Shown in pieces: positions 1 to 7,958 of a stretch of 12,178 nt of DNA. This DNA is from a virus (lineage: Duplodnaviria; Heunggongvirae; Uroviricota; Caudoviricetes): the IMG/VR virus record IMGVR_UViG_2563366883_000010, positions 1-12,178 of that record; one strand, given 5' to 3'. A program made the position numbers and the translations under genes. The notes under the pieces are model-generated. The model searched no databases and was not told the origin of the DNA. It saw only the letters and a program-made list of their open reading frames with translations. The stretch's first letter is position 1, and every line of letters begins with the position of its first letter.

Positions 1-60
1 GGTGCCCGGCGGGGTCGGGTTTGTCCTGAAAACGCCCCCCACCCCGTCATACAGCCTCAT
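1..60 (-). CDS. Hypothetical protein, 5' fragment (ATG at 58-60, continues past window start); sits where a terminase subunit would be expected
   Basis: Minus-strand ATG at 60-58 overlaps the upstream stop (TGATG) and is followed by 19 sense codons (MRLYDGVGGVFRTNPTPPGT) to the window edge. Function is a guess from position after HNH. Confidence 0.3.
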   Translation of the reverse strand, partial: MRLYDGVGGVFRTNPTPPGT

Positions 61-242
61 CAGCGATTGCGGAAACATTCCATAACCTCGCGGTCACGGT
101 CGTTTAATCGCGTCGCTGTGATACGTTCTGCGCGTCCTGACGCTTTATCTTTATGCCCTGTTTCCTGTGTCTTCCATGCGTCACGCTGCCTTATAAGTCC
201 ACGGATAAGGCGGTTTTGTTCCCGCTCATTCATCAGCGTCAT
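60..242 (-). CDS. Hypothetical small protein (60 aa)
   Basis: ATG at 242-240 overlaps the HNH 3' end by 17 nt; charged, protein-like composition (MTLMNEREQNRLIRGLIRQRDAWK...); its stop overlaps the next ATG. The SD is weak. The antisense plus-strand ORF 67-480 is S/R/C-rich and looks spurious. Confidence 0.35.
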   Translation of the reverse strand: MTLMNEREQNRLIRGLIRQRDAWKTQETGHKDKASGRAERITATRLNDRDREVMECFRNR

Positions 243-666
243 ACATCCAGTTATTGCGGTTAGCGGCCCGTTCTTCCTCTTCACGAAATCCACCTGCGGC
301 ACGCTTGCTTTTTGTTGCCGGATCAAGCCATTTCGTTTTCTGGTTATGACACGCCTGGCACAATGGCTGATGGTTCCATTCGGGCCAGAAGAGAACATCA
401 TCACCGCCATTAATCGGGATAATGTGATCCACCACCACGGCGGGCGTATATATCCCCGTCTCAAGGCATCGCACGCATAACGGGTTTTTACTCAGATACA
501 TGGCGCGGTATTTGTCCCACTGTCTGGAGTACCCACGCGCGCGGCGGTGTCCTCGTCTGGCATCCTCTGCACGCCATGCCGCCCGCCTGTGCTCCTGACA
601 CTTGCCGGACTTCACGCGCCTGTTACAGCCTGGTTCTGTGCATCGTCTTAATGGTTGCCACGGCAT
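226..666 (-). CDS. Phage-associated HNH endonuclease
   Basis: N-terminal Cys cluster (CTEPGCNRRVKSGKCQEH) and HNH core (VVVDHIIPINGGDD...NHQPLCQACHNQK). ATG at 666 overlaps the connector stop. Confidence 0.85.
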   Translation of the reverse strand: MPWQPLRRCTEPGCNRRVKSGKCQEHRRAAWRAEDARRGHRRARGYSRQWDKYRAMYLSKNPLCVRCLETGIYTPAVVVDHIIPINGGDDVLFWPEWNHQPLCQACHNQKTKWLDPATKSKRAAGGFREEEERAANRNNWMYDADE

Positions 667-962
667 CAGTACACCCCCACATCACGGTAAGCCGTCCAGA
701 GTGCACCAATCGTCATGGGTACGCGTGTTTTTGCGTTATCCGCGACAATCTGGCGATTTTCATACAGGTGAGCGATAAACATCATGCAGCCAATCTTTAT
801 GGCTGGCGTGAACTCCAGCCCGTCATCAAAGCGCCTGCCTATGTGTATCTGGCACGCCTCAAGCGATGCGGCAATGTATCCGCTGATTAACTGGTCTTCC
901 TCGTCGCCATCGATGCGGCAATGGAGTTTCACTTCTTCCAGGGTGATAAGTTCTTCTGTCAT
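666..962 (-). CDS. Head-tail connector protein (gp6-like)
   Basis: 98 aa; N-terminus MTEELITLEEVKLHCRIDGDEEDQLISGYIAASLEACQ is typical of gp6-like connector/DNA-packaging proteins. ATGA overlap with the adaptor gene. Confidence 0.7.
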   Translation of the reverse strand: MTEELITLEEVKLHCRIDGDEEDQLISGYIAASLEACQIHIGRRFDDGLEFTPAIKIGCMMFIAHLYENRQIVADNAKTRVPMTIGALWTAYRDVGVY

Positions 963-1297
963 TTTTCCGCGCCCTCACGACAAAGAATTTCAAGGCGTGT
1001 CCTGGCGGCATCCGGCAGCGGCTGCCCGATGATATTCAGTACACGCCCCGCCAGCGGCCCCGTATTGACCTTTATCCGGCTGGTGGCGTTGATGTCCTTC
1101 CTGTAGCGTATCCATACCCTTACCGTTCCAGTCGCCAGTTCTGCACCCGATGAAATGGCCTCCTTGCTGCTGATCATGTTCACGCTTGCCCAGAGTGTGT
1201 GACCGTCCACCCACGTTTCGAGTATTTCGCCCGTCATGGCTCTGGTCTGTTTCAGGGTCTGAATCGTTACCCTGTCACGCAGTCGCCCTATGTTCAT
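959..1297 (-). CDS. Head-tail adaptor / head closure protein (head-tail joining family)
   Basis: 112 aa from ATG at 1297 (MNIGRLRDRVTIQTLKQ...), which overlaps the portal stop as ATGA. An alternative in-frame ATG at 1339 would overlap the portal by 45 nt and has a poorer SD. Confidence 0.7.
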   Translation of the reverse strand: MNIGRLRDRVTIQTLKQTRAMTGEILETWVDGHTLWASVNMISSKEAISSGAELATGTVRVWIRYRKDINATSRIKVNTGPLAGRVLNIIGQPLPDAARTRLEILCREGAEK

Positions 1298-2505
1298 TCC
1301 GGTTTTTCTCCCTCGCTGATTTTTACTTCCTGTTTCCATGCCTGGCTGAACTCATCACCACCATCACGCGGGGACAGCCCTTCACGTTCGCGGGCTTCGT
1401 TCGGGCACATAACGCCGGATTTGATGCCGCGTTCATAGGTGGCAAAGCGTTCGCCAGGTGTGGCCCGTAACAGGTCCGCGCTGTCAAACTCCACCTGATA
1501 CCGGATACCAGGTACAGGCGAGGCCACCAGCAGGGCGTTTTTTATCTGCTGCTCAAAGTTCGCCAGCCACGGGCGCATCGTCATGGTGAGAAATGCGCGG
1601 CTTGCCTCGCTGAAATTGCTGTAGGTGCTGTTGCTGTATTCCTGCAAAAAAATCGGCGAGACGTTGAACATTCGGGCGATGTCTTCAATGGTGAAGCGAC
1701 GGGAGGCCAGCCATTCAGCATCCTGATTACTCATGCCCAGCTGCTGATAGCTCATACCCCCTTCAAGGATGGGCGTTTTTCCGGCGTTTCTGGCCCCTTT
1801 GTAGCGTTCCAGTGCGGCTAATGCCTGTTTGCCCTTCACGCCGTCCAGCCATTCGCCTGACGTGATAACCCCTGCCGCCATCATGCCATCACGCATCACG
1901 CTCGCGCCGTGGCGTTGTTGGGCCAGCCCAAGCCCCAGCGATTCGCGGCAGATGGTTACAGGTGAGCGCCCCATAAAGCCGTCATCCGTGGAGTAACGAA
2001 GGTGAAGTACTTCCCACGGTAAATAGTTGCGGGTGTTTCCGGTGTAGGCGTCAGTGATGCAATAGCGCCAGTTGTGTTCTCCTGTCTGCTCCACGTTCAC
2101 CGACTGCGGCGGGTAAGGATGCAAAGCCGTCGGAAAACCATCACGCCCCCACTGAATCACCGCATAAGCATTACCGTTTAACAGGCAGTGGCGGATCATC
2201 ATTCGCTTAAACTGGTAGGGGGTTTGCCATGCGTTCGGGCGCTCGTTGAGGATATGATCGACCGGATGAGAATCAAGCCACTCGCGGGCCTCCTTCCCCT
2301 TCTCATTGCGTACCAGGTACAGGTAGCACGGCATGGTAGCCACCGCCTCAGAAATGACCGTGACGGCGTTCATGACGGCGGGGAGTGATTCCGCTGTCCC
2401 CGATGATACGTACTCACCCGCCCCCGTGTTCGATGTGCCAGCCAGCGCCATAAATTCATCAAGCGTCATGCTGCGCTGCTCTTTTTTTCTTCTGAAAGGC
2501 CACAT
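1294..2505 (-). CDS. Phage portal protein, HK97 family
   Basis: 403 aa with portal-like composition and conserved stretches (e.g. FTIEDIARMFNVSPIFLQ). ATG at 2505 sits one base after the protease stop and is preceded by a GGGGGTG SD-like motif. Confidence 0.9.
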   Translation of the reverse strand: MWPFRRKKEQRSMTLDEFMALAGTSNTGAGEYVSSGTAESLPAVMNAVTVISEAVATMPCYLYLVRNEKGKEAREWLDSHPVDHILNERPNAWQTPYQFKRMMIRHCLLNGNAYAVIQWGRDGFPTALHPYPPQSVNVEQTGEHNWRYCITDAYTGNTRNYLPWEVLHLRYSTDDGFMGRSPVTICRESLGLGLAQQRHGASVMRDGMMAAGVITSGEWLDGVKGKQALAALERYKGARNAGKTPILEGGMSYQQLGMSNQDAEWLASRRFTIEDIARMFNVSPIFLQEYSNSTYSNFSEASRAFLTMTMRPWLANFEQQIKNALLVASPVPGIRYQVEFDSADLLRATPGERFATYERGIKSGVMCPNEAREREGLSPRDGGDEFSQAWKQEVKISEGEKPE

Positions 2506-2506
2506 A

Positions 2507-3064
2507 TCACACCCCCGCTAAATCCGCCCACCAGCGGCGATTATCCGCACGCGGCATTTTTTCGGGGTGCTGCTCATACAGGGAGCGGCGGGCCAGCTCC
2601 ACGCCGGAATCGGGGTAAGCCGGTACGGATGTAACGGTAATTTCGTACAGTTCCGCCACCAGCACGGTGCGCACGCATGGATCTGTTGTGGTATCCCATA
2701 CATCCTTACGGGAACGAAAGCCAAAGCTCATGCCGGATATATCACCACGTTTAACCAGTTCGATAACGTCACGCCCTGTGCTGGTATCCGGTGGGGTCAG
2801 TTCAAAGCGTAACCCTGTGTCGTCCTCTTCCAGTTTCAGCGTTCCGGAACGGGTGCGCCCCAGTAACATGCTGTGGTCATGCTCATACAGGCCGCGAACG
2901 TCATTACCCGCCGCAAGCCACTCAGTAAACGCCCCCCGCTGGAATTTTTCGTAAAACTCCCCCCATAACAGTTCCGAAAGGTTATCCCAGCGAACAACGT
3001 AGCCTGTAAGCGTGTTGCTGGCGCTGGTGGTGATTTCCGATGACCGGATTTCCATACTCTTCAT
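2507..3064 (-). CDS. Prohead serine protease, HK97 family (S78/U35)
   Basis: Family-typical motifs GAFTEW, HDHSMLLGRTRSGTLKLEEDDTGLRF, RGDISGMSFGF. Start taken at ATG 3064 (MKSMEI); the longer ORF to 3178 starts with GTG inside the capsid gene and is rejected. Confidence 0.85.
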   Translation of the reverse strand: MKSMEIRSSEITTSASNTLTGYVVRWDNLSELLWGEFYEKFQRGAFTEWLAAGNDVRGLYEHDHSMLLGRTRSGTLKLEEDDTGLRFELTPPDTSTGRDVIELVKRGDISGMSFGFRSRKDVWDTTTDPCVRTVLVAELYEITVTSVPAYPDSGVELARRSLYEQHPEKMPRADNRRWWADLAGV

Positions 3065-3089
3065 AATTTTTTTCACCCATAAAACACTA

Positions 3090-3109
3090 AAGGGGCTTTT
3101 TAGCCCCTT
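3090..3109 (-). terminator. GC-rich hairpin just 3' of the capsid gene (possible partial terminator or transcript stabiliser)
   Basis: AAGGGGCT-tttt-AGCCCCTT, 8-bp stem; on the minus strand it is followed by UAGUGUUUUAU. Lies 10 nt after the capsid stop and before the protease start. Confidence 0.4.
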
Positions 3110-3119
3110 CTGTATGCTG

Positions 3120-4277
3120 TTAATCGTCGTCCTGTGGCAGTTCCAGAATCTTGATCGCGTTCGAATCCACCACGCCACCGCCTAAATATTTTTGCGTGAA
3201 AATTTTGATGAATCCTGGTTCTGTCAGGTTGTCCGGTCTGGTGCGAACACCTGTTTCGTGATCAACGATGTAGTAACCGCGTTTGAAGTCACCCAGGGCA
3301 ATAACGTTATCAGGCATAAACTCCAGATATTCGACCGGAAGGCCCAGCAACGTATCAGGATCACCCGCCTGTAAACGGTCGCGCCAGATGTAATCACCGT
3401 TCGCGTTCTTCACCTTCTGGAGTTTTGCGGCCGTCGTGGAGTTAACCACCCAGACCGCGTTCTTGCGGTATTTTTTACGTAATGCAAATTTCAGATCGAT
3501 CAGCGGGTCCGCAGATGTCCAGGCAAGAGATTCGGAAGGCTTAATAACCTGCAACGTACCAAAATCACGTTCTTTGTCGTTCTTCTCTGCACGGGGTACG
3601 GATAAAAAGCCTTTTGCTTTTTTGTCACCGTCGCCCACAACCAGATCGCTTTCTTCGGTTTCCGTGAAGGTGTCGCCAATCTCACCCGTCAGCCATGAAA
3701 GGATGTCCACATCGGAAAAATCCACGATTTCCTGTGTGGTGCGCGGGTACGCATAGACCGGATACAGCTTAATGCTCACCTCGTTAATCTGCGGGGTGCT
3801 GGTCTGTTCGCGTGCCTTACCCTCTTCACCGTGGTTAACGGTCGCACCGCCAGCGGAAACAAGCTGCTTAAACTCGTTGCTGCTGATTTTCTTCACGGTA
3901 CAGATGCGGCGCATGGTGGACTCATCCGCCAGCATTCGCATGATTTCGGTGTTCAGTTCGGGGATAACGGTATAACCACCATCAGCGGGAACGCCTGTAC
4001 TCAATGCGCGGGTTTCACCTGTCAGAATGTAGTGACGTAGTTCGGCGGGGTCAGTGGTCTGGCTGTTTTTGCCTGGTTTACTGCGCTCTTCGTCAGCAAC
4101 GGCCTCAAGGCGGGAGATGTCTTTATCGAGGGATTCAGCTTTAGCGCGTAATTCGTCAAATTTTGCGCCCTCAGCATCGTTAAGGCTGCGGTTTTCTTTT
4201 TCCGCGTTCTCCAGTATGTCGCGCATCTGATTTTTAATGGCGGTTTTCTGCTGGCGTAATTCGATTATTCTCGGCAT
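3120..4277 (-). CDS. Major capsid protein, HK97 fold, with N-terminal coiled-coil scaffold-like domain
   Basis: 385 aa from ATG 4277 (MPRIIELRQQ...). The first ~90 aa are charged and helical (ELRAKAESLDKDISRLEAVADEE), like a delta domain. The rest has the usual HK97-type capsid composition. Confidence 0.9.
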   Translation of the reverse strand: MPRIIELRQQKTAIKNQMRDILENAEKENRSLNDAEGAKFDELRAKAESLDKDISRLEAVADEERSKPGKNSQTTDPAELRHYILTGETRALSTGVPADGGYTVIPELNTEIMRMLADESTMRRICTVKKISSNEFKQLVSAGGATVNHGEEGKAREQTSTPQINEVSIKLYPVYAYPRTTQEIVDFSDVDILSWLTGEIGDTFTETEESDLVVGDGDKKAKGFLSVPRAEKNDKERDFGTLQVIKPSESLAWTSADPLIDLKFALRKKYRKNAVWVVNSTTAAKLQKVKNANGDYIWRDRLQAGDPDTLLGLPVEYLEFMPDNVIALGDFKRGYYIVDHETGVRTRPDNLTEPGFIKIFTQKYLGGGVVDSNAIKILELPQDDD

Positions 4278-4367
4278 AAAAAAAGTCCTGAAGTTAAGTA
4301 AGGAACTCCAGGACGCGGCAAACACTCAACCGTTTTTCATAAGGAAATCAGCAATCGCACCGATCGT

Positions 4368-4415
4368 TTTCCCGCCTGGTAATGAATATTGGCGAGCACA
4401 TTAACAGGCGGGAAA
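4368..4415. repeat. Perfect 11-bp inverted repeat with a 26-bp spacer, in the leader of the head operon
   Basis: TTTCCCGCCTG (4368-4378) and CAGGCGGGAAA (4405-4415). The spacer holds a second nested pair TAATG/CATTA (4380-4384 / 4399-4403). Confidence 0.5.
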
Positions 4416-4491
4416 GTGGCCCCAGCGTCCTGGCACCACGGGCGAGAATACTCATGATTCAGTTCGGGTAAAATATGCCGATCCTGTCAGT

Positions 4492-4518
4492 GAACAACGT
4501 GGAACAACCACGAACAAA
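4492..4518 (-). promoter_or_regulatory. Phased direct repeats, 3 x GAACAA at exact 10-bp spacing (TTGTTC on the coding strand); candidate regulator-binding array
   Basis: GAACAA at 4492, 4502 and 4512. The reverse complement matches 22 of 25 positions with the array at 10869-10893. Confidence 0.4.
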
Positions 4519-4536
4519 TAATTTACAAAAAATGAC

Positions 4537-4560
4537 AAAAAGCCGGATTGCTCCGGCTGT
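4537..4560 (-). terminator. Rho-independent terminator (minus strand)
   Basis: Minus strand reads ACAGCCGGAGCAATCCGGCTTTTT: 7-bp stem AGCCGGA/TCCGGCT, 4-nt loop, then a T-run. Sits 9 nt after the stop of the 74-aa gene. 23 of 24 identical to the element at 4891-4914. Confidence 0.6.
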
Positions 4561-4568
4561 ATGCGTGC

Positions 4569-4793
4569 TCAGTCCCTGATCCCTTTCAGAAATTCTATCA
4601 ATGCATCTATCTGTTCAGGATTTACCGCCAGCATTTCACCGGACAGAGCACATCTCACAAAACCATGCTGATCCTTTTCAATCAGTGCGCCCGTCTCCAG
4701 GAATGCGCGGTAATCATTGATGCTCATCGTCTCCATGTTGTCAGCATGGTATTTATCACGCTGTTTTAATATCTCATCAAATTTCATCGGCAT
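4569..4793 (-). CDS. Hypothetical protein (74 aa), cargo gene
   Basis: ATG at 4793 with SD GAGGA 7 nt upstream; the ORF is bracketed by two near-identical terminators. No family recognised. Confidence 0.6.
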   Translation of the reverse strand: MPMKFDEILKQRDKYHADNMETMSINDYRAFLETGALIEKDQHGFVRCALSGEMLAVNPEQIDALIEFLKGIRD

Positions 4794-4890
4794 TGTTTTT
4801 TCCTCTGTTGTGTCTGTTTGTTTCAGATAGTAACTATGCCTGACCGTGACGAAAACCCGGTAATGCGCCATACCGTTTCAACTGGTGCAA

Positions 4891-4914
4891 AAAAAGCCGG
4901 ATTTCTCCGGCTGT
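4891..4914 (-). terminator. Rho-independent terminator (minus strand), twin of 4537-4560
   Basis: AAAAAGCCGGATTTCTCCGGCTGT; same stem with one loop substitution and a T-run on the minus strand. Sits 4 nt after the stop of the PerC-like gene. Confidence 0.6.
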
Positions 4915-4917
4915 TGA

Positions 4918-5190
4918 TTAGCTGTCTGGGTAATTACGCCATATTTCATCGCTTACACCATCTATACCCATTTCAGCATAAGTGCGATCTACTGCCTTTC
5001 TCAGGTCTCCGTAATTATCCGGCGGCTCCGGTGGCCTCTGTGCCTTTCTGGAACATTCCAGCCGTCGCATCGTAACCTGATGCCGTTCCTTGTCTGTCTC
5101 CACCAGCAGCATGACTTCACCCCATCGCGCCGCCGCCCTCCGGTAAAAGCCTTTCGCCTCGAGTTCTTCCGCTATGCGGTCATGTACCAT
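4918..5190 (-). CDS. PerC-family transcriptional regulator-like protein (90 aa)
   Basis: Start at ATG 5190 (MVHDRIAEELEAKGFYRRAAARWGEVM...) with a GGGGGTG SD directly after the SSB stop. The LE-KG-(F/W)-RRAA-RW signature is what I recall for PerC/Pch activators. The longer ORF to 5310 overlaps the SSB gene and is rejected. Confidence 0.55.
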   Translation of the reverse strand: MVHDRIAEELEAKGFYRRAAARWGEVMLLVETDKERHQVTMRRLECSRKAQRPPEPPDNYGDLRKAVDRTYAEMGIDGVSDEIWRNYPDS

Positions 5191-5200
5191 CGCCACCCCC

Positions 5201-5611
5201 TCAGAACGGAATACCGTCACCGTAAGGGTCATCGCCTCCCGCTGGTGGCTGATTACCCTGTGTGCCTGTGGTTTTGCGTCTGTTCCCGCCAGGACGTGCC
5301 GCACGGGCACTGATTACGCTGTCTGCAATAACCTGATAACCCTGCCGCGTTTCCCCGTTCTGTCCGGTCCACTGGCTGACCTGCATCGTGCCGGATACGC
5401 TGGCAACGTCGCCTTTTTGATGTTTAGCCAGGAAGTCGGCCTGCTTACCAAATGCGATGACCGATAGCCATAACGTCGCCTGTCCGTCCTGTGCCTGACT
5501 GCATGGCAGTGATACCGCCATACGCGCCAGCGTCATCGGTGTGCCCTTGCTGGTCTGTTTTACCTGCGGGTCGTCCACCAGCCGACCGTAAGCCGCTATC
5601 TGTGCTGTCAT
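5201..5611 (-). CDS. Single-stranded DNA-binding protein (SSB family)
   Basis: 136 aa; the OB-fold core (WLSVIAFGKQADFLAKHQKGDVASVSGTMQVSQWTGQNGETRQGYQV) is co-linear with E. coli SSB; Gly/Pro/Gln-rich linker and acidic tail ending DGIPF (compare SSB DDDIPF). ATGA overlap with the upstream ORF. Confidence 0.8.
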   Translation of the reverse strand: MTAQIAAYGRLVDDPQVKQTSKGTPMTLARMAVSLPCSQAQDGQATLWLSVIAFGKQADFLAKHQKGDVASVSGTMQVSQWTGQNGETRQGYQVIADSVISARAARPGGNRRKTTGTQGNQPPAGGDDPYGDGIPF

Positions 5612-5853
5612 GATTCCACCTCTCCGGTTTTAACGTTGATGGTTGTTACCTGTTCCGCTTCGGCAATCTCCCGTTCTGTCAGCGTGGCAAAGTTTGCCGC
5701 CGTCGTGGTCATGAATGCGCTTATCAGTTCGGGATGTGCTTTCGCGTATCCTTCCCCGGCGTTGCGGTCGATGATTTTTATCGCCACCCTCAGCCAGTGT
5801 TCTGTCAAATCAAGGGCGTGAGATTGTGGTTTTTTGGCGTGCTTCGTTGTCAC
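5608..5853 (-). CDS. Hypothetical protein (81 aa), first gene of the SSB / PerC-like operon
   Basis: GTG start at 5853 with GAGG 9 nt upstream; its stop overlaps the SSB ATG (ATGA). No family recognised. Confidence 0.5.
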   Translation of the reverse strand: MTTKHAKKPQSHALDLTEHWLRVAIKIIDRNAGEGYAKAHPELISAFMTTTAANFATLTEREIAEAEQVTTINVKTGEVES

Positions 5854-5904
5854 AGGCTTTACCTCACAGCAATAAAATAAAATTTTTGCATTTCAACCCT
5901 TCAC

Positions 5905-6127
5905 CTGTTCACCTTTTGCAATTTTCCCTTTTTATTCATGATGTTAAGGGGTGAACAGTTTCACAAAAACTATTCACCAACTGTTCACCACTGTTCACCC
6001 TTAAAGCTCAATAAAGAATCAAAAAGGTGAACAGTGAATAGTTTGGTGAACAGTTCATAAATAACTGTTCACCCTATAATATACTGATATAAAAGACATT
6101 TATTGCAGGGTGAACAGTGGTGAACAG
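5905..6127. repeat. Iteron-type replication origin: nine copies of GGTGAACAG (both orientations) plus an AT-rich segment
   Basis: Full 9-mers at 5905, 5950, 5981, 5991, 6026, 6045, 6065, 6109 and 6119 (start positions), with partial copies at about 5972 and 6035; AT-rich stretch 6074-6104. Begins 14 nt after the replication-protein stop. Confidence 0.75.
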
Positions 6128-6140
6128 TTATTCCATAAGT

Positions 6141-7958
6141 TTAATTTTTTCCATCGTCATTTGTGACCGATGCACATGATGGCATCCAGTATTCTGAATC
6201 CTCTGTCAGGGTCACATTTGAACGCAAACCGTGCTTCGTTTTCCGTTTCATATACTCCCTGCCATATTCCGCCATTGCCCCCGGCATATCTTTACCGAAG
6301 CGCGTCAGTGTTACAGGTTTACCGAATCCGTGTGCCCTCATATATGCCAGATAGGCGTGATAAAGATACCTGCGCGGACTGAACGGAATAATTTCGGCAT
6401 TACCCACTAACAGACCATCACACATTACCGACGACATGAGATAGCCGCAGAAGTCCACCAGCGAATCGCCCTCGCGTTTTATCACCAGAGCTTCTTCTGA
6501 TTTCTGCTGCTCATACAGCAGGCGTTTAGCTTCGTCCTGGTCAGAAAAACGAGTAAGCAGGTGGCGAATCACAACCGCCAGCTCTCCTTCTATTTTTTCT
6601 GCCAGCATGGGGTCGCGTTCGTTTTCCGGTACAACCTCCGAAAAATTGAATATCACCCGACGACGTGAAATCCCCCCGCTGCGGTCACTGAATGACATGG
6701 CGTTATTGTTCACCGCCAACACTACCGCCTGAATGCGTGTTGAGTAGGGGGCTTTATGCTTCGGGTCGATTGCCACCTTGTCACCGCCTGTAATGGCCTT
6801 AATTCCTGCGCCATCACCAGCGTAACGGGTCATATCCGGCATGATAATCAGCGAAAAGCCAACCACTAACGCGCGTTCCCTGGCATCTTCCAGCGCCTTC
6901 ATGCTTGCCGATACCGTGTTGGCCTTACCCGCCAGCATGGTGCAAATCTCCGCCATCACGCTTTTACCACTTCCCCCTGGACCTGTTACCTCAATGAATA
7001 ACTGCCAGTCGTACCGGTTCGCCAGCACCATGAATAATGCAGCCAGTACGCGATCCGCCTTGCGGTCATTCTCAGCCACCGAACGGCGTAACCACTTCCA
7101 GAAATTCGGCGCATGTGTTGCCAGCGTTTCCCCCTCTGCTGGTGGGCTGAAAGGTAATTCACTGGCAATTAACAACCAGTCGTTTTTGTTATGCTCCCGA
7201 AAATTACCTGTTCTGGTATCAAATACCCCGTTACTGAATCCAATCAGGTTACGGGCTGTATTCCCCATTACAGGCAAACTTAACTTCATGGTATCGACCG
7301 CCGATTTAATGGCGTTCTGCGAATAGCTGATCTCCGCATCAATGAAAATCTGTGCCATAGCTCGCTGTAATTCTTTATCCTGTACTGGCTCCCATACAAC
7401 GCCGTTGTAATGGTGAACAGTGTCAGAGTCAGCATGAATCGCCAGTTCACCGCCATAATGTGCCAGGAGAACTTCGCCGCGTTGACTTGCTCCCATCTGG
7501 TTAAGCGCCAGTGATGAAGCGTTATCGTCTTTTACCCGCTCTTTTTTCTTTACAGGCAGTTCAACTACCTTTTTCTTTTCCGCCTGCTCTGCCCGTTCAC
7601 GTTCCAGATATTCGCGCCAGTTCTCCCGTTTCTGGCTGTGCATTCCTTCAGGGTAATAATCAGCATCCCTGACACCTGCCGCTGCCAGTTTCTGCCCGAT
7701 GGTATTAACAAGCCCCGAACGCAATAACCCCGCCTGATAGAGACGCACGCGATAGCGTCCGTCCGGTACGATTTGCAGGTTGTCCAGTTCGGCAAGTTGT
7801 TGCTCTCCAAGCCAGACAGGTGGCACGTTATCGCCAGCCAGTCGCCCGTCCTGTTCCTGCCACTGCTTCGCATGTGCCCACGCATCACTACCCGCAAAAA
7901 TGATGACTTCCGTCATTTTGTCACGTGGCTGGTGTTTTAAATTTGGCGCTTTTTTCAT
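6141..7958 (-). CDS. Replication initiation protein, P4-alpha / D5-family primase-helicase (SF3 NTPase)
   Basis: 605 aa from ATG 7958 (MKKAPNLK...). Walker A VTGPGGSGKSV, Walker-B-like LIIMPDMT, VVLAVNNN; D5_N-like segment NGVFDTRTGNFREH. The track start at 7973 is GTG; the ATG at 7958 overlaps the upstream stop as ATGA. Confidence 0.9.
   Translation of the reverse strand: MKKAPNLKHQPRDKMTEVIIFAGSDAWAHAKQWQEQDGRLAGDNVPPVWLGEQQLAELDNLQIVPDGRYRVRLYQAGLLRSGLVNTIGQKLAAAGVRDADYYPEGMHSQKRENWREYLERERAEQAEKKKVVELPVKKKERVKDDNASSLALNQMGASQRGEVLLAHYGGELAIHADSDTVHHYNGVVWEPVQDKELQRAMAQIFIDAEISYSQNAIKSAVDTMKLSLPVMGNTARNLIGFSNGVFDTRTGNFREHNKNDWLLIASELPFSPPAEGETLATHAPNFWKWLRRSVAENDRKADRVLAALFMVLANRYDWQLFIEVTGPGGSGKSVMAEICTMLAGKANTVSASMKALEDARERALVVGFSLIIMPDMTRYAGDGAGIKAITGGDKVAIDPKHKAPYSTRIQAVVLAVNNNAMSFSDRSGGISRRRVIFNFSEVVPENERDPMLAEKIEGELAVVIRHLLTRFSDQDEAKRLLYEQQKSEEALVIKREGDSLVDFCGYLMSSVMCDGLLVGNAEIIPFSPRRYLYHAYLAYMRAHGFGKPVTLTRFGKDMPGAMAEYGREYMKRKTKHGLRSNVTLTEDSEYWMPSCASVTNDDGKN

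Follow-up and report, generated by a model that had tools for sequence, protein, structure and literature searches.

The post-origin block and its island

The window, a stretch of viral DNA of 12,178 nucleotides, constitutes one mobile element with its genes read on the minus strand. The original prediction had placed in it, just beyond a replication origin, a satellite-borne operon encoding a single-stranded DNA-binding protein (SSB), an unknown 81-aa protein and a PerC-like activator. Three open reading frames were found there on the minus strand, with outer limits of exactly 4918 and 5853. The features of the window are as follows, from the integrase end to the packaging genes:

10961-12178, minus strand: tyrosine integrase (gene calls and domain profiles)
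10398-10586, minus strand: AlpA (domain profiles)
between AlpA and the DUF4222 gene, minus strand: Icd/Ash-like region
7955-8254, minus strand: DUF4222 protein
6141-7973, minus strand: D5-type primase-helicase, the replication initiator, upstream of the origin (Pfam D5_N, DUF5906, Pox_D5)
about 5900-6135: iteron replication origin, AT-rich, with about 12 GGTGAACAG repeats in both orientations
5869-5896, minus strand: weak candidate promoter ahead of orf81, TTGAAA-16 nt-TATTGC, read by eye
5788-5789: mosaic breakpoint inside orf81, at which high identity to Sakai Sp7 ends (blastn)
5608-5853, minus strand: orf81, first gene of the operon, small helical protein of 81 aa (phrog_1231 at 1e-49)
5201-5611, minus strand: ssb, satellite SSB of 136 aa with an OB fold, a linker of ~30 residues and the tail ...DDPYGDGIPF (PF00436, TIGR00621)
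4918-5190, minus strand: pchE orthologue (PerC family, group 3 Pch), 90 aa (PF06069)
about 4889-4912, minus strand: predicted intrinsic terminator ending the operon, stem AGCCGGAGAAATCCGGCT followed by a U-run
4569-4793, minus strand: orf74, a small gene of its own, placed between operon and capsid module (phrog_1957)
about 4536-4563, minus strand: second copy of the terminator hairpin, past orf74 (z = -3.6)
4285-4314, minus strand: third terminator-like hairpin, immediately ahead of the capsid start codon at 4277 (-16 kcal/mol, z = -5.4)
past orf74, minus strand: packaging genes for an HK97-type capsid, prohead protease, portal, head completion protein, connector and HNH endonuclease

Sp7, OI-51, CP-933C and EcCIEDL933 are names of the same element of E. 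coli O157:H7, referred to below in strain Sakai as Sp7. The window carries the gene set of a capsid-forming phage-inducible chromosomal island (cf-PICI), namely an integrase, AlpA, a primase with a downstream iteron origin and its own HK97-type capsid, protease, portal, connector and HNH genes; the terminase genes fall outside it and were found in a 99% identical island of E. coli SHP24. By its gene content the element is assigned to the cf-PICIs of E. coli, of the EcCIEDL933/Sp7/OI-51 type, and the original reading of it as a satellite was right. The cf-PICI literature describes the same layout of integrase, AlpA, primase and iterons followed by the island's own capsid module, and presents EcCIEDL933 as a mobilisable cf-PICI whose induction depends on a helper phage and which uses helper tails.

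Further parts of the island were observed in passing. At 8796-9460, between alpA and the replication genes, gathering-level Rfam matches on the minus strand comprised two C4 antisense RNA genes (9274-9361 and 8796-8883), isrK (9383-9459) and a c4 a1/b1 target (8951-9000), and the region looks like a duplicated P1/P7-type C4/Icd-like immunity cassette. An open reading frame at 9031-9690 bears a Phage_ASH domain, and a small divergent frame of 59 aa on the plus strand (9718-9897), for which Pfam gave no match, lies where a YlcI/YnfO family protein is annotated in the ATCC 25922 island. The DUF4222 protein occupies the place of RgdR (ECs_1581, likewise DUF4222, identity only 29%), which Flockhart et al. 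2012 (PMC3378721) described as the OI-51 gene product that regulates type III secretion.

Among complete genomes, that of E. coli SHP24 is closest, with 99.2% identity over 4500-6200; its island is inserted in tqsA and its terminase genes lie past the window end. When positions 4500-6200 were compared by megablast with 50,697 phage records, no match emerged, which argues that the block is satellite-specific rather than phage DNA. At least 80% of the 936-bp block is carried by 695 of 5426 complete E. coli genomes, and any match to it by 1616 of them, about a third. Sp7/CP-933C was long annotated as a defective prophage (PMC3378721), and the block could on that ground be decaying cargo of a cryptic prophage with no current function. 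We consider this extremely improbable: all open reading frames are intact, the block is carried at that coverage by the 695 genomes, the core and tail of the SSB are conserved, EcCIEDL933 is mobilisable and the phenotypes of PchE are measurable (PMC6265319, PMC7369912).

The junctions within the block are those of an operon. The stop codon of orf81 overlaps the ssb start by 4 nt (ATGA), and the 10 nt separating the ssb stop from the perC ATG include a GGGGGTGG ribosome-binding site. The terminator begins 5 nt past the perC stop (-13.2 kcal/mol, z = -4.0); minus-strand terminators lie only downstream of perC, none being internal to the operon. The sequence thus combines a single strand, tight or overlapping junctions and an end terminator. 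In O157:H7 strain PA20, RNA-seq and 5' RACE revealed a polycistronic ECs1586-ECs1587-pchE RNA (Andreozzi and Uhlich 2020, PMC7369912), the 5' end of which was mapped to a G lying 10 nt ahead of ECs1586. Co-transcription, as originally proposed, has therefore been demonstrated for the orthologous genes and is probable by analogy for those of the window. The mapped O157:H7 promoter region has no homologous counterpart in the window, and a consensus scan detected no minus-strand sigma-70 promoter upstream of orf81, so that we infer the expression of the window copy. The most likely start of its transcription is the intergenic region between origin and orf81, as in the orthologue; read-through from the primase gene possibly adds to it, and it probably ends at the predicted hairpin past pchE. 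In O157:H7, the operon and pchE showed low basal transcription in uninduced cells, falling after SOS induction (PMC6265319, PMC7369912). Such a fall is unexpected for a pure replication function.

The SSB and orf81 beside the origin

The origin lies between the primase-helicase gene and orf81, in a stretch with a GC content of 0.35-0.41 (35-41%). Its iterons adjoin orf81, which places the operon just beyond the origin, as had been predicted.

The SSB passed the cut-offs of both family profiles, with 62.5 bits for PF00436 (cut-off 26) and 57.7 bits for TIGR00621 (cut-off 53.95), and a search of the PDB returned 26 SSB chains at E <= 0.01 (best 6e-11). The protein ends ...GGDDPYGDGIPF, and the description of an SSB with a DGIPF tail was accurate. 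It is 100% identical to ECs_1587, whereas its identity to the SSBs of the phage collection is below 35% in every case. For residue-level comparison, the E. coli SSB sequence was verified against PDB 1EQQ, and W40, W54, F60 and W88 were taken as the aromatic residues that stack on single-stranded DNA. Three of these four are kept: W48, F54 and W81 of the satellite SSB correspond in the alignment to W54, F60 and W88, and 109 family members conserve them. Conversely, W40 aligns with C37, and H55, the site of the ssb-1 mutation in E. coli SSB, with L49. Because W40 and H55 are not conserved, the DNA-binding mode and tetramer formation could differ from those of E. coli SSB.

In bacterial SSBs, it is the acidic C-terminal tip with its final IPF that binds partner proteins. 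Among 120 SSB homologues the tail tip is conserved in about 100, most often as PYGDDIPF (64) or PYGDNIPF (25); the DGIPF of the window is a minority variant (PYGDGIPF in 4). These features fit a working SSB that would use a host-type partner-binding tip.

orf81 matched nothing in Pfam or NCBIfam; its only assignment was to phrog_1231, annotated as of unknown function, in keeping with its first description as an unknown protein. It is 73.5% identical to ECs_1586. The AF2 model is a helical hairpin of moderate confidence (pLDDT 69.5), for which a Foldseek search gave no fold match, and comparison of the sequence with PDB chains gave chance-level matches only. An exhaustive profile search recovered 726 remote cluster representatives sharing the motif IDxxFGEGYAKxHPELIAAFMxTAA; the relatives tested all belonged to phrog_1231, and none had a Pfam domain over the motif region. 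Some remote members directly follow a DUF5906 primase-helicase and others a Zn-ribbon/Toprim/DUF927 primase; one lies after a CI-like repressor. orf81 is thus a member of a large uncharacterised family whose genes often stand directly behind those of primase-helicases.

To describe gene order, we used 80 IMG/VR loci that encode close relatives of orf81 and share the primase type of the window; these are not independent samples and the counts are descriptive. A scan of genome contigs for the SSB had yielded four loci, too few for synteny statistics, and the loci found via orf81 were used in its place. In 75 of the 77 loci with sequence downstream, ssb directly follows orf81. Two loci (L038 and L045) have about 315 bp inserted between the two genes, and in one (L028) ssb is missing. 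Islands without perC that carry a lambda-like capsid, a decoration protein and a small terminase subunit keep primase, origin, orf81 and ssb in place, and in a Klebsiella element the gene that comes directly behind a P4-alpha-type primase encodes an SSB of 59% identity, again without PerC.

These arrangements bear on what the SSB is for. Competition for host or helper partners through the tail, proposed at the outset, is plausible. In a stronger version, the SSB would mainly be a conflict protein, either titrating host or helper SSB partners to interfere with the helper or acting as a decoy or trigger for SSB-sensing defences. This would agree with the conserved host-type tip, with transcription of the orthologous operon in uninduced cells (PMC7369912) and with a separate lineage, which the low identity to host (26%) and phage-collection SSBs suggests. 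We regard it as unlikely, since ssb is tightly linked to primase and origin across islands with differing packaging modules, as well as to the P4-alpha-type primase of the Klebsiella element, and PADLOC models gave no defence-system match for the SSB or for any of the four small proteins.

A literature search of the searchable library found no test of a PICI-encoded SSB or of the orf81-SSB pair, and this pair, rather than PerC, may be the unexplored part of the block. Members of the orf81 family stand immediately behind primase-helicases of three unrelated classes, in satellites as well as phages. A role for orf81 as an accessory factor in replication is conceivable, for instance as an adaptor linking the helicase and SSB of the satellite with the replisome of the host. 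Since transcription of the operon occurs in the uninduced island, its SSB might also alter the traffic of host SSB partners in ordinary growth. We put these ideas forward tentatively and think them rather unlikely.

The PerC-family gene

The third gene belongs to the PerC family, as had been suspected: PF06069 scored 151.8 bits (cut-off 22.6) over positions 1-89 of its 90. A longer frame of 130 aa (4918-5310), which overlaps ssb, was rejected as the PerC gene. The profile begins at its Met41 and the real gene therefore starts at the ATG at 5190, the sole correction to what had been read from the DNA; RefSeq annotates the same 90-aa perC gene in SHP24. Some records call the extended 130-aa frame, and in SHP24 RefSeq places a frameshifted 'trigger factor' pseudogene over the perC 3' end and terminator (L001 9335-9450, about 4834-4949 of the window); both calls look like annotation artefacts.

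The protein is identical to PchE (ECs_1588) of Sakai at 88 of 90 positions (97.8%), the two substitutions being R52K and Y59F relative to Sakai. Synteny also indicates orthology, the flanking genes being identical to ECs_1587 and ECs_1589, and one PerC homologue in a large protein database bears the name PchE. Assignment to the ANR (AraC negative regulator) family, proposed for EcCIMP1_025, was considered and discarded: residues 6-52 showed the weak similarity pointed out by Pick et al. (E = 0.0034), but NF033650 scored 17.2 bits, below its cut-off of 32 and far below the PerC profile. In the AF2 model (pLDDT 87.8), the N-terminal 50 residues resemble a TPR-like three-helix unit and no DNA-binding fold; comparison of the sequence with PDB chains gave chance-level matches only. 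PchE is, as modelled, a small non-HTH regulator of the PerC family.

What PchE does has been studied in O157:H7. When the group that mapped the transcript expressed it from a plasmid, csgD, curli, biofilm and HEp-2 adhesion were strongly repressed, and flagellar gene expression and motility rose (PMC6265319, PMC7369912); the phenotypes are largely those of plasmid over-expression, the effects of deletion being small (PMC6265319). Group 3 Pch proteins, to which it belongs, do not activate LEE1, according to studies (Iyoda and Watanabe 2004, Porter 2005) as they are cited in PMC11773190 and PMC6265319. Among the accessory genes of Gram-negative PICIs, PerC homologues count as typical (Fillol-Salom 2018), and the PerC-like EcCIMP1_025, also from a PICI, represses the LEE (Pick 2025, PMC11773190). 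The original prediction had argued from PerC/Pch activators of virulence regulons that the satellite copy could act on host genes. Action on host genes is supported by the experiments with the O157:H7 orthologue, in the form of reduced csgD, curli and adhesion and increased motility and not of LEE1 activation or a plain activation of virulence.

Across the 80 IMG/VR loci perC occurs in 14, after ssb in 13 and directly behind orf81 in the locus that lacks ssb. It was seen with and without a homologous HK97 capsid module, and seven loci have the module without perC. The pattern is clear: orf81-ssb is a conserved post-origin core that goes with the replication module, and perC is a variable add-on cargo.

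Downstream of perC, the next gene, orf74, matches phrog_1957 at 2e-41 from Met27 of a 100-aa frame and is 100% identical to ECs_1589. A near-identical terminator, AGCCGGAG(A/C)AATCCGGCT with a U-run, follows both perC and orf74, likewise in SHP24 and Sakai, and a PerC-less island (L007) has one copy of it, after ssb. This distribution suggests that recombination at the terminator brought in the small genes as cassettes. The third hairpin is followed by UUUUUUU and then by the capsid AUG, and the sole motif resembling a Shine-Dalgarno sequence, AGGA, is part of the 3' arm of its stem. Standing between pchE and the packaging genes, it may make capsid expression dependent on antitermination or on opening of the hairpin.

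One could see in PchE mainly the satellite's own late activator or anti-silencer of the packaging module, its host phenotypes being side effects of over-expression. The gene is placed exactly between the replication and packaging modules, the three terminator-like hairpins from pchE to the capsid start codon suggest that the packaging genes may need separate activation, and group 1 Pch proteins relieve silencing by displacing H-NS (Fukui 2016, PMC4764244). Such a role nevertheless seems quite improbable to us. Co-occurrence in the 80 loci speaks against it, perC being absent from most related islands, including the seven with a homologous HK97 capsid module, and present in islands with no detectable HK97 capsid homologue; pchE expression goes down, not up, on SOS or prophage induction (PMC6265319, PMC7369912), and the region downstream of pchE is not AT-rich (GC 0.45-0.54).

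Proposed working of the operon and comparison with known systems

We hold it highly probable that the block is the post-origin operon orf81-ssb-pchE of a cf-PICI of the EcCIEDL933/Sp7/OI-51 type, joined to a different primase-origin module, with the SSB and orf81 serving replication and pchE being host-acting cargo. After induction, the island's primase-helicase would open the iteron origin, and the satellite SSB, to judge from its sequence and from what is known of E. coli SSB, would coat the single strands exposed there. The acidic ...D(D/N/G)IPF tip may then recruit host SSB-binding proteins, for example the Pol III chi subunit or PriA, to the satellite replicon, and orf81, which travels with primase genes, would assist replication. 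PchE would modulate host surface and motility genes in trans, possibly via contacts with the H-NS silencing complex, as group 1 Pch proteins do.

The gene content, co-transcription and PchE phenotype are already known from O157:H7, and the operon is in this sense an ordinary, known feature. Its genes are annotated in RefSeq, were listed in the 2012 description of OI-51 and have been shown to be co-transcribed, so it matters little as a discovery. New here are the pattern of core (orf81-ssb) and cargo (perC), the conservation of the SSB tip and of three of its four aromatic residues, and the size and context of the orf81 family. Should the SSB and orf81 set how PICIs recruit the host replisome or hamper helper replication, they would provide a useful handle on satellite biology.

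The nearest known system is Sp7/OI-51 of Sakai, which was located by the coordinates in Flockhart et al. 2012 (PMC3378721) and compared with the window. The OI-51 gene list in that paper includes a putative ssDNA-binding protein, the PerC-like activator PchE and phage structural genes. By blastn, positions 1-5788 of the window are 97.7% identical to Sakai Sp7 (locus L006, 7675-13462); from 5789 to about 9860 only short, weaker matches were found, and the integrase end is again related, at 92.7%. Gene order and near-identical sequence are thus shared from inside orf81 through the packaging genes, whereas codons 1-22 of orf81 differ, as do the origin and the genes for the primase and the DUF4222 protein. 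The Sakai iterons are TAACCCGCA, in the same position as the GGTGAACAG iterons of the window, and the two primases are only 25.6% identical, which points to a different replication module for the window primase. Since the breakpoint at 5788 falls within orf81, the variable basic N-terminus of its product goes with primase and origin and the conserved C-terminal part with ssb. The insertion sites differ as well, the SHP24 island lying in tqsA and Sakai Sp7 between roxA and phoQ. On these comparisons the window is best described as a mosaic relative of EcCIEDL933/Sp7 with a swapped replication module.

With the chromosomal SSB of E. coli (PDB 1EQQ), the satellite protein shares the OB-fold family, the equivalents of W54, F60 and W88, a disordered Gly/Pro/Gln linker and an acidic tip ending in IPF. 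The two are only 26% identical. At 136 aa the satellite SSB is shorter than the 178-aa host protein, its L23 loop is shorter too, and its linker spans about 30 residues; the tip reads DGIPF in the satellite SSB, DDIPF in most of its homologues and DDDIPF in E. coli SSB.

PchE of the window is of the same length as EPEC PerC (EAF plasmid pMAR7) and 42% identical to it; PerC of pMAR7 and PchA/B/C of EHEC belong to the same Pfam family, whose profile the window protein matches over its full length. PerC and PchA/B/C are LEE1/ler activators that counteract H-NS, whereas group 3 proteins do not activate LEE1. The setting differs too: pchE of the window lies in the replication-proximal operon of a satellite, not beside perA/perB or in the effector locus of a lambdoid prophage.
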